This document shows, one piece after another, positions 39,970-41,805 of a stretch of 64,000 bases of DNA. The notes under the pieces are model-generated. The model was not told where the DNA came from and ran no database searches. It saw nothing but the letters and a program-made list of their open reading frames with translations. How positions within the stretch are numbered: the stretch's first letter is position 1; each line of letters starts with the position of its first letter. Both the position numbers and the translations under genes were made by a program. The stretch comes from Patescibacteria group bacterium. Lineage in GTDB: Bacteria > Patescibacteriota > Gracilibacteria > UBA4473. The DNA lies in contig CBFIAK010000001.1 in NCBI GenBank assembly GCA_965660445.1, forward strand, positions 224,001 to 288,000, read 5' to 3'.

Positions 39970-41321
39970 GTCTTAAATTAAAAAAATCTATCGCTTGTTT
40001 GGTAGATGGCGAACATTATTTACCAAACACAAAAGCCACACTCGAAACTCTTTCTCAAGAATATGATATACAATATATTATCTTTATTGGAGGCACGGAA
40101 AAGATTGGAAATACAGAAGATATACAAGCTGGGTTTACGTATCCTGTTTATTTTGCTTATACATCTCATGGGCCAGATGTAAATATAATGAAAGGGATTC
40201 TAGAGTCGCATAAAGTGGATATGGTCTTTGATCTTTCAGATGAACCAGTTGTCAATTATAAAAAAAGATTTGAAATGGCTTGTGTTATTCTTTTTTGTGG
40301 AATGATCTACAAAGGGTCTGATTTTGAGTTTTTACCCCTTCAATTTGATGAGATTCTCACAAAACCTTCACTTGCTATTTGGGGAACAGGAAAGCGTATT
40401 GGGAAAACAGCCTTTGGAGGATTCGTTGGTCGTCTCCTCAAAAATAGAAACAAAAAACCAGCAATTGTTACATTGAGTCGAGGCGGTCCTCCTGAGCCAA
40501 TGTTAGTAAGAGGTGATGAAATAAATATTGATGTAGATTATCTTCTTTCTATTCATAAACAAGGATTGCATGCATCATCTGATTGCTTTGAAGATGCATT
40601 GATGGCAAGAATACCAACGTTTGGATGTCGGCGTTGTGGTGGCGGTATGACCGGTAAGGCCGTTATTTCTTTCGCCCAAACAGGCGCAATGATGGCAGAA
40701 GAGTCCTCATTTGTGGAGACGGTTATTCTTGAAGGAAGTGGAGCCAGTATACCAGAAATTAAAACAGATGGAGTTATCCTCCTTATGGATATAACACAAT
40801 CAACAGAAATATTAGAGTCTTACTTGACCCCTCTGAAAATACTATATGCCGATATAGTTGTATTAACAATGTGTGAAGATTTCTTCGTGTCTGATCGAAA
40901 GATTGATCGTATTATACGACATATTAAACGTATAAATAAGAAAGTTCGTATAGCCACAACTGTATTAAGACCGCTTCCATTGAAATCAATAAAAGGAAAA
41001 AAAGTGTTTTGGGCAACAACGGCACCCTCACACGTTGTTTCTTTTTTGAAACACTATATAGAAGATGTTTATGAGTGTTCTGTGGTAGCATCGAGCTCGC
41101 ATTTGTCTCATCAAGAAAAACTGAGAAAAGATATGCAGAACAGTCATGAGTTTGAATGTGTCCTCACAGAGTTAAAAGCAAGTGCTGTATCTGTCGTTGC
41201 AAAAGAAGTAGAAAACAAAGAAATTGTTTTTCTTGATAATGAGTTCCATATTGTTGATAGGGGTGGTGATATTAAAGATTTGGAATCAGCTATAGTGAAC
41301 TGTCTAGAGAAAAAAGCATAA
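39966..41321 (+). CDS. cpgS: Cyclic 2,3-diphosphoglycerate synthetase
   Basis: LVDGEHY.P, GGTEK, DLSDEPV, GTGKRIGKTA, RGGPPEP, HASSD.FEDA, GCRRCGGG, EGSGA, TELKA. Confidence 0.88.
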   Translation: MSLKLKKSIACLVDGEHYLPNTKATLETLSQEYDIQYIIFIGGTEKIGNTEDIQAGFTYPVYFAYTSHGPDVNIMKGILESHKVDMVFDLSDEPVVNYKKRFEMACVILFCGMIYKGSDFEFLPLQFDEILTKPSLAIWGTGKRIGKTAFGGFVGRLLKNRNKKPAIVTLSRGGPPEPMLVRGDEINIDVDYLLSIHKQGLHASSDCFEDALMARIPTFGCRRCGGGMTGKAVISFAQTGAMMAEESSFVETVILEGSGASIPEIKTDGVILLMDITQSTEILESYLTPLKILYADIVVLTMCEDFFVSDRKIDRIIRHIKRINKKVRIATTVLRPLPLKSIKGKKVFWATTAPSHVVSFLKHYIEDVYECSVVASSSHLSHQEKLRKDMQNSHEFECVLTELKASAVSVVAKEVENKEIVFLDNEFHIVDRGGDIKDLESAIVNCLEKKA

Positions 41322-41775
41322 AAAAATAGCGTGAGTGTTCGAGGTCTCCGCAATAAATATGGAGTCGAGCATTCGCGCTATTTCGAGTGGGTATCCTTGA
41401 CCAAAGGATGAGTCTCTTGCCTTGCTTGGGTAATCTTCTTTCTCGATAAATCGAGATCCTGCGTTACCGGTCAGAGTTCTTGGGTGTAGAGAACGAATGA
41501 CGCAAGCGTCAGAAGAAGTTTTCTACGAACTGTGTATTTTGGTAAAATACCTCAATTGAATGAGGGCATTTCTTATGGGGGTCTGGTTATAAGAAACGAC
41601 ATTGCAAAGCGGGGAGAACCGAGATTTCGAGACAAATGCCTGCAAAAAATCAAAGTATATATTGTGTGTTGGACAGGTTGATCGAATCCTCGATCCTCAC
41701 CGCGTTTAAGTACTGAAAGAAGTACTTGAGAAGCCGAAGTTGTGAAAGAAAGAAAACTAATTGAATTTTTCATAT
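41321..41775. ncRNA. Unassigned highly structured non-coding region, candidate ncRNA
   Basis: About nine hairpins in 450 nt between convergent genes; no convincing ORF; no match by eye to tRNA, tmRNA, RNase P or SRP. Confidence 0.5.
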
Positions 41776-41776
41776 C

Positions 41777-41805
41777 ATCTTACGCGCCAAGTGCTTCTTT
41801 GTCAA
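41777..41805 (-). promoter_or_regulatory. Near-consensus sigma70 promoter facing into the structured region
   Basis: TTGACA-N17-TAAGAT on minus strand. Confidence 0.6.

Follow-up and report, generated by a model that had tools for sequence, protein, structure and literature searches.

What does the gap between two convergent genes of a small bacterial genome hold, if not a spacer? The window analysed here is a stretch of 64,000 nt from a Patescibacteria group bacterium (GTDB lineage Gracilibacteria, UBA4473; assembly GCA_965660445.1, contig CBFIAK010000001.1, positions 224,001 to 288,000), and the gap occupies 518 nt of it (41322-41839), between cpgS and lgt. A first-pass annotation, made from the letters alone, had proposed there a densely structured, undescribed non-coding RNA (ncRNA) of about 450 nt. 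We show that this gap contains one copy of a structured element that recurs, with compensatory changes, in related genomes and that matches no family in Rfam. The explanation that we favour, at a probability of roughly 55%, is that the gap holds a real structured ncRNA gene of a previously undescribed family, transcribed from the minus strand and acting in trans.

A conserved structured family

The density of structure claimed for the gap stands up to dinucleotide shuffling. The fold energy of the whole gap has a z-score of -4.30 on the plus strand and -3.69 on the minus strand, with 0 of 100 shuffles as good, and the interval 41312-41772 reaches -4.86 and -5.76, respectively. The genome (0.99 Mb in five contigs, 37% GC) has two copies of the element. 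The other one lies 173 kb off on the same contig (contig 1, 438602-438993, minus strand), in the intergenic region that separates the gene of an AI-2E transporter from that of a methyltransferase, and is 80% identical over window positions 41413-41555 (E 3.3e-27; nhmmer E 6e-18). The identity between the two copies is a mosaic. Core blocks are 92%, 100% and 88% identical, the 92% and 88% blocks being those that hold the two strands of the long-range helix P1 (GCCUUGC... and ...GCAAAGC); three other helices, H1, H2 and P5, fall to 25-47% and are still paired. To judge from the sequences, this agrees with two paralogues of long standing, each of them under selection.

Homologues in related genomes, whose collection the first-pass annotation had proposed as a check, were found, and they carry compensatory changes. 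A covariance model made from the genome's two copies (R1) matches 18 of the 42 other genomes of the same bacterial family. A model of the first half of the element, made from 11 sequences (R2), matches 28 of these 42 and covers 19 of 25 genera, the window's own included. A laxer search of five genomes that had seemed negative recovered clear homologues in three (G016, G048 and G010), along with a false positive in coding DNA (G004) and a partial match (G005). Hence, the element is present in at least 31 of the 42 other genomes, and it may be near-universal in the family. Of 21 loci that a motif scan picked out in named genomes, 19 match R1; by their titles these 19 are 10 Candidatus Peribacteria, 7 Candidatus Gracilibacteria, one "bacterium" and one Altimarinota. 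A metagenome scan gave five more copies, all of the long form described below. Outside the family, the first-half model found only two weak matches in 109 genomes of the class, in a search of low sensitivity that scored few candidates per genome. We regard it as nearly certain that the window copy belongs to a real, conserved and structured family.

Architecture and covariation

Read in the plus orientation of the window, the elements of the family follow each other in the order H1, H2, P1, P2/P3 pseudoknot, P4/P5, helix "a", a hairpin, the second strand of P1 and a tail hairpin, over 330-750 nt. Their counterparts in the window copy, all of them strand-neutral, are as follows.

41324-41342/41365-41383: H1, a 19-bp hairpin, with an inner CUCC/GGAG stem (41346-41349/41361-41364)
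41393-41409: H2, a small hairpin ATCCTT/AAGGAT with a conserved GAC-containing loop
41414-41425: first strand of P1, CTCTTGCCTTGC, whose partner is 41604-41617
41429-41474: H-type pseudoknot P2/P3, apical hairpin P2a included
41429-41433/41464-41468: P2, GGTAA with TTACC
41441-41456: hairpin P2a
41459-41461/41472-41474: P3, CTG with CAG
41475-41479/41527-41531: P4, partners read by eye
41486-41494/41518-41526: P5, found in the window and in about 11 other copies
41534-41550: a hairpin common only to the window copy and the other copy of the same genome
41550-41565: helix "a" with a hexaloop cap, CCTCA-ATTGAA-TGAGG
41569-41596: hairpin TTTCTTAT/ATAAGAAA, homologous to the family hairpin just ahead of the second P1 strand
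41600-41617: second strand of P1, CATTGCAAAGCGGGGAGA, within the most conserved block of the family (family form CATCGCAAAGCGGAGAG)
41609-41633/41680-41703: tail hairpin, -28.7 kcal/mol on the plus strand and -36.3 on the minus strand
41708-41727: hairpin AAGTACT/AGTACTT, between the tail hairpin and the promoter, predicted from the window sequence

The stems first drawn for this gap are in the sequence where they had been placed: H1 with the CTCC/GGAG that it encloses, H2, P2a, the hairpin TGACG-CAAG-CGTCA (41498-41511), those at 41534-41550, 41550-41565, 41569-41596 and 41708-41727, and one at 41680-41695. The local stem at 41476-41494 can also be drawn, but there the homologues back P4 and P5 instead, nested around the TGACG hairpin.

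Across the family, H1 corresponds to the terminal long hairpin of every member, with a conserved apical part, an A-run ahead of it and often a U-run after it. P1 pairs GCCUUGC-type with GCAAAGC-type blocks that lie 200-450 nt apart, its second strand sitting in an almost invariant block (21 of 24 bases the same in the window copy and its paralogue; the stretch 41533-41556 is identical at 24/24). P2 is GGUAA/UUACC with the apical hairpin P2a, and the first strand of P3 lies inside the P2 loop and the second after P2, which makes the pseudoknot of H type. P4 and P5 nest around a UUGAC hairpin.

Covariation backs H1, H2, P1, the pseudoknot and the nested helices. A plain MAFFT alignment of the 22 first halves is not structure-aware, and RNAalifold recovered only four pairs from it; it was thus replaced by a model-based alignment (the 22 first halves and one spurious row). 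Here, 86.2% of cells pair (shuffles: 64.3%), and changes on both sides are seen at 35 of 38 pairs; none of 500 shuffles reaches any of these measures, and sliding the partners by 1-3 columns lowers pairing to 31-53%. The R1 structure pairs in 89.6% of cells (79.2% when shuffled), with 23 of 43 pairs changed on both sides. Helix by helix, double changes affect 11/11 outer and 8/8 middle pairs of H1, 5/5 pairs of H2 (90.1% of cells paired) and 3/5 pairs of P2 (90% paired). The two helices of P1 are paired in 90.8% and 99.2% of cells, four pairs having changed on both sides; at its seventh pair most copies have C-G, and the short forms G041c11 and G012c225 have U-A. P2a has a U-A in the window where the paralogue has a C-G. 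P3, three pairs long, is paired in 22/22 sequences, with a middle pair that is C-G in 16 and U-A in 6.

The first-pass annotation had also drawn competing long-range helices and read them as a sign of a switch. These have a family-wide counterpart. The tail hairpin of the family has the form GGAGAG...CUCUCC, and its conserved GGAGAG has two possible partners, both of them conserved CUCUC(C) segments: the CUCUC of the first strand, which extends P1, or the CUCUCC of the tail. Since in the window the first strand of the tail hairpin overlaps the second strand of P1, the two pairings are mutually exclusive. The choice of GGAGAG between them could be a conformational switch, although not in the riboswitch role that had been suggested, which is not borne out by the gene context given below.

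Long and short forms

The family comes in two forms. In long forms, helix "a" encloses a sub-domain about 100-150 nt long, and an internal promoter-like site lies on the plus strand between the two strands of P5. In short forms a small loop closes helix "a", and that site is lacking; such loop-capped helices, differing in sequence, are found in the window copy, L031, G041c11/c21 and G012c225. The window copy retains every helix apart from the sub-domain. Given its hexaloop cap and its lack of the internal site, we filed it as a short form. Two or three copies per genome occur in the window genome (G000) and in G041, G006, G012, G022, G024 and G015, and in four of these (G000, G041, G006 and G012) a long form stands beside one or two short forms. 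The stretch that follows the UGUAG block is at once the promoter-like site and part of covarying helices.

In one clade of long forms (L018-L025) there is an extra hairpin with a long U-run, terminator-like, about 25-60 nt after the internal promoter-like site; in L024 it was flagged at 1742-1719, between that site and the conserved sub-domain. Some genomes hold pairs of identical or near-identical copies in different gene contexts. The two copies on contig 1 of G015 (137887-138278 and 715249-715640) have identical model scores, and by reading those on contigs 1 and 11 of G024 and on contigs 11 and 21 of G041 are near-identical. Such same-genome pairs suggest recent duplication or gene conversion of the element.

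Strand and extent of the transcript

If the element is transcribed, from which strand, and between which ends? Two features bear on this.

41777-41805, minus strand: sigma-70-type promoter TTGACA-N17-TAAGAT, with the -35 box at 41805-41800 and the -10 box at 41782-41777, 10/12 matching
41317-41770, minus strand (from the considerations below): predicted RNA gene of the short form, starting about 7 nt after the -10 box and ending with the U-tract after H1

The promoter corresponds in place to one that other genomes conserve past the tail, directed at the element, and its hexamers recur at the equivalent position in L023, L032, L033, L100, G049c7 and G024c1. A facing promoter of at least 10/12 is present in 25 of 33 copies; the opposite strand has one in 3 of 33, and shuffled sequences in 8%. 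In several copies the match reaches 11 or 12 of 12. An alternative candidate, the window stretch 41640-41668 taken as a degenerate facing promoter, was dropped after the layout of the top group had been found to correspond to the tail hairpin (41609-41703) and the promoter (41805-41777) of the window. At the far end, an A7 tract at 41320-41326 flanks H1 and becomes U7 on the minus strand, on which H1 and the reversed A-run have the standard form of an intrinsic terminator; the A-run is kept beside H1 in nearly all copies. The promoter, final hairpin and T7 tract that had been put forward in favour of the minus strand are thus in the sequence, and they coincide with features that the family conserves. 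H1 looks like a bidirectional terminator.

We infer strand and transcript ends from these signals: the facing promoter and the H1/U7 terminator favour a minus-strand RNA of about 450 nt, whose transcription would start at TTGACA-N17-TAAGAT and stop at H1 with its U7. The core of the window copy also folds better on the minus strand (z -4.99, against -2.49 on the plus strand), as does the predicted transcript as a whole (z -5.76, against -4.86). Transcription of the window copy from the minus strand appears somewhat better than an even bet.

The functional RNA might instead be read from the plus strand, either as a transcript that begins just upstream of H1 or as the 3' end of the cpgS message; the facing promoter would then serve solely to produce an antisense regulator. 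Much of what weighs against our favoured reading is evidence for this one. The window H1 is the more stable on the plus strand (-34.0 kcal/mol, against -22.6). Long-form cores have the lower z-score on the plus, that is the aligned, strand in 11 of 12 tested. The G-U polarity invoked in the first-pass annotation in favour of the plus strand is found in P5, where on that strand there are 21 G-U against 8 A-C, and a G-U within the helix GCGGCUU/AAGUCGU is likewise conserved on the plus strand. In four long forms (L016, L017, L028 and L096) the tail hairpin is followed by a U-run on this strand, and an ATAAA-like motif lies ahead of the A-run. The polarity does not extend to the first-half alignment, whose G-U/U-G cells (40) and A-C/C-A cells (47) point to neither strand. 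Other measures do not discriminate either: mean shuffle z-scores of the first halves are -3.18 and -2.92 on the two strands, the base composition of unpaired positions prefers one strand or the other depending on the method, and alifold energies favour minus for the whole element and the tail (which in single-sequence energies folds better on minus too) and plus for the core and the second half. G-U counts and folding energies thus fail to single out one strand.

To these points must be added four of a more general kind. Alignments fitted to a model lean to the structure of that model. Related genomes are non-independent observations. The scores of the window copy (277.8 bits with R1; 94.7 bits, E 5.4e-22, with R2) come partly by construction, because the R1 alignment and the R2 seed include it. 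And patchy gene conversion could have produced the mosaic identity of the two copies.

Yet, a plus-strand gene accommodates other facts poorly. H1 followed by U5 would terminate its transcript about 75 nt from the start in many copies; upstream of H1 there is no convincing pair of -35 and -10 boxes; short forms are without a plus-strand terminator; the sequence conservation from the tail up to the facing promoter would have no explanation; and the core of the window copy itself prefers the minus strand. An origin in a 3' untranslated region is not general, given that L017 has its upstream gene on the opposite strand. We consider a functional plus-strand RNA unlikely, though it comes first among the alternatives.

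Both strands might also be made. In long forms, the internal promoter would drive a plus-strand RNA of about 270 nt, made of the sub-domain, the second P1 strand and the tail as terminator; it would converge on the minus-strand RNA and be fully complementary to it, giving a sense/antisense pair. Short forms would keep only the minus-strand RNA. Of 29 long forms, 25 indeed have the internal site on the plus strand and 4 have one on the opposite strand; none of 5 short forms has it. Site, sub-domain and tail hairpin with its U-run (in four lineages) form one plus-strand transcription unit that only long forms have, and the G-U evidence is accounted for, since it is on the plus strand in the sub-domain and on neither strand elsewhere. 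But the internal "promoter" is itself part of covarying structure (P5 and the UUGAC hairpin) and may be conserved for reasons of RNA structure. For the window copy, moreover, this scheme reduces to the minus-strand gene that we favour. We see in it a slimmer chance than in a plus-strand gene, which leaves the order of minus strand, plus strand and, in long forms, a sense/antisense pair.

A functional copy or a decaying duplicate?

A minus-strand RNA of the family could exist and the window copy still be its remnant, i.e. an RNA pseudogene derived from the long copy. This copy is without the sub-domain and the internal promoter-like site, two bases of its second P1 strand differ from the family consensus, and it scores below the long copy with R2 (94.7 vs 124.1 bits). 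Against this, its retained helices all pair in spite of their low identity (25-47%) to those of the paralogue, and its core blocks are 88-100% identical. The deletion coincides exactly with a helix cap, a solution that recurs with other sequences in three further genomes, each of which has a long copy too. The window copy has also kept its facing promoter intact (10/12). Decay appears less likely again than either of the transcriptional alternatives above, and the window copy is probably functional.

Relation to known RNA families

With Rfam 15 at gathering thresholds, the whole window yields only rRNA and tRNAs, and nothing in the gap. Within the gap, matches allowed up to E 10 peak at 21.7 bits, where the threshold of the model is 70; lax searches of the paralogue and 12 homologous loci gave nothing usable either, the homologous loci matching only ncr1175, at 37.2 and 33.8 bits, below its threshold of 60. 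The family itself is new, and no known RNA family fits; in this the proposal of an undescribed structured RNA is borne out.

The annotation had further reported a lack of RNase P, tmRNA and signal recognition particle (SRP) motifs in the gap. The first two genes indeed map elsewhere in the genome, and SRP models match nowhere in it. The RNase P RNA is on contig 2, at 32783-33097 or wider, with GAAAGUCCG and ACAGAACUCGGCUUA blocks, and scores 36.5-54.8 bits against an Rfam threshold of 100; the tmRNA, found by ARAGORN, is on contig 1 at 176141-176558 (418 nt, tag ANSLFAKARNAVASLLSPAPAYAVA). Housekeeping RNAs of this lineage are thus divergent, and one could ask whether the element is a 6S or SRP RNA that the Rfam models miss. 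Such an RNA could be counted as missing, because 6S (RF00013) has no match anywhere in the window genome, the SRP RNA models RF00169 and RF01854 have none there even at E up to 10 or 1, and RF00169 is found in 0 of 43 genomes of the family. A pattern for a motif resembling SRP domain IV has no match in the window genome either. However, the consensus has a multi-branched, pseudoknotted core and not a rod with a central bubble, it measures 330-750 nt, and it shows no weak Rfam match to either RNA up to E 10. Besides, SRP proteins are also not found, so no SRP RNA would be expected: PF02978, the Ffh M domain, has no match in any of 43 genomes of the family or of 81 from the class, with controls at 14/14, and the SRP54-type GTPase domain of Ffh and FtsY (PF00448) was searched in the window genome only and is not found there (0/1). 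A divergent 6S or SRP RNA is therefore a very improbable identity.

Were it real, the lack of SRP from an entire bacterial class would be remarkable; paper searches brought up no mention of it. The main text of the 2016 Peribacteria genome paper (PMC4736985) contains no occurrence of "SRP" or "signal recognition", although the gene tables of its supplement may bear on the matter; nor does this main text contain "non-coding", "ncRNA", "RNase P" or "intergenic". In the accessible part of the literature on ncRNAs of Peribacteria and Peregrinibacteria, an RNA of this kind is nowhere described.

That the element is not an RNA at all, but the remnant of a protein gene, a repeat at the DNA level or a fold arisen by chance, can be practically dismissed: open reading frames (ORFs) of 40-66 aa overlap the gap, and ones of 80-200 aa overlap some homologues, but the former match no NCBIfam model, the latter share no common strand or frame, indel lengths do not keep to multiples of three, helix substitutions are compensatory, and the window genome has only two copies.

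Among known RNAs, the large orphan ncRNAs of bacteria offer one close comparison. OLE, ROOL, GOLLD and raiA-motif RNAs are hundreds of nucleotides long, fold into many helices with a pseudoknot, are restricted to certain lineages and stand alone in intergenic regions, with functions not evident from their sequence. Our element resembles them in size, complexity, lineage restriction and stand-alone genes. It differs in having no Rfam match, a host from the candidate phyla radiation, long and short paralogues in one genome, and convergent promoter-like sites. With 6S RNA, of which two paralogues in one genome are known, it shares this duplication as well as a stand-alone gene with a strong sigma-70 promoter; it is unlike 6S in its branched, pseudoknotted core, which takes the place of a rod with a central bubble, in its much greater length and in the lack of an Rfam match. 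RNase P RNA (RF00010) and tmRNA are alike in size class, pseudoknot and near-universal presence in the lineage, but both of those genes are found elsewhere in the window genome.

Gene context and possible role

Does the element regulate its neighbours? It shares with riboswitches, cis-acting leaders and elements of 3' untranslated regions a conserved alternative pairing, one option of which is, in some copies, a hairpin followed by a U-run. Unlike them, it has no constant neighbour gene or orientation. Its flanks change from locus to locus: S1-domain protein and ruvB, AI-2E transporter and methyltransferase, transketolase and LigT, or cpgS and lgt, several of them convergent, and the next gene is often on the other strand. 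Because the neighbours vary, a cis-regulatory role and a link to the synthesis of cyclic 2,3-diphosphoglycerate are unlikely. The riboswitch or 3' untranslated role suggested for the element fails for this reason, as does its tie to the pgk2-cpgS pair, for which a co-occurrence check had been proposed: outside the window, homologues adjoin unrelated genes.

From its architecture and distribution, we infer that the RNA would act in trans, as a folded molecule and not on the neighbouring gene, probably as a protein-binding scaffold or as a component of a ribonucleoprotein (RNP). At the outer edge of what the data allow, the family might be a new class of large housekeeping RNA specific to Peribacteria-type bacteria and on the scale of RNase P or OLE, i.e. 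an RNP scaffold or ribozyme, with long and short isoforms from paralogous genes, an antisense partner made from the convergent promoter of long forms, and a switch between P1 and the tail. We offer this as speculation, and would not bet on it.

One of the flanking pairs is noted here for its own sake. In many relatives, a protein of about 350 aa with four S1 domains directly adjoins the element, with ruvB on the opposite side; ORF inspection places this pair at no fewer than nine loci, and Pfam confirms it in L018, L024 and L029. In the window, an S1-domain gene (44838-45893, minus strand) lies 3 kb from the short copy, in inverted relative orientation. Going by such neighbourhoods, the four-S1-domain protein is a possible partner of the RNA.

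Large, strongly covarying structured ncRNAs are rare, and time and again the known ones have led to new biology. None had previously been described for this uncultivated lineage of small genomes. The retention, in a genome of less than 1 Mb, of a duplicated non-coding element some 450 nt or more in length suggests real selective value. For further work, the family has a pseudoknotted core that is well defined, long and short natural versions from which a dispensable domain can be read off, and unusual convergent promoter-like sites.

The surrounding locus

The genes on either side of the gap are the following.

39966-41321, plus strand: cpgS, an ORF of 451 aa to the left of the gap, for cyclic 2,3-diphosphoglycerate synthetase
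41840-42646, minus strand: lgt, to the right of the gap (PF01790 at 5.7e-25)

The names first given to these genes hold. The cpgS ORF matches no Pfam and no NCBIfam model and is identified by PDB chain 8ork (E 1.8e-105), lgt is identified by PF01790, and the ORF that precedes cpgS is a relative of 2-phosphoglycerate kinase (239.7 bits with that model, under its cut-off of 343). The window thus carries, at 39088-41321, an archaeal-type pair of a 2-phosphoglycerate kinase-like gene and a cyclic 2,3-diphosphoglycerate synthetase gene in a bacterium of the candidate phyla radiation. The gap had been described as relatively GC-rich: GC content is higher over 41250-41699 (0.41-0.43) than just downstream (0.30-0.37), but the rise is modest. 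Further along the window, 46317-49467 holds 23S and 5S rRNA genes, with no 16S gene upstream; the S1-domain gene directly precedes the 23S gene, on the opposite strand.

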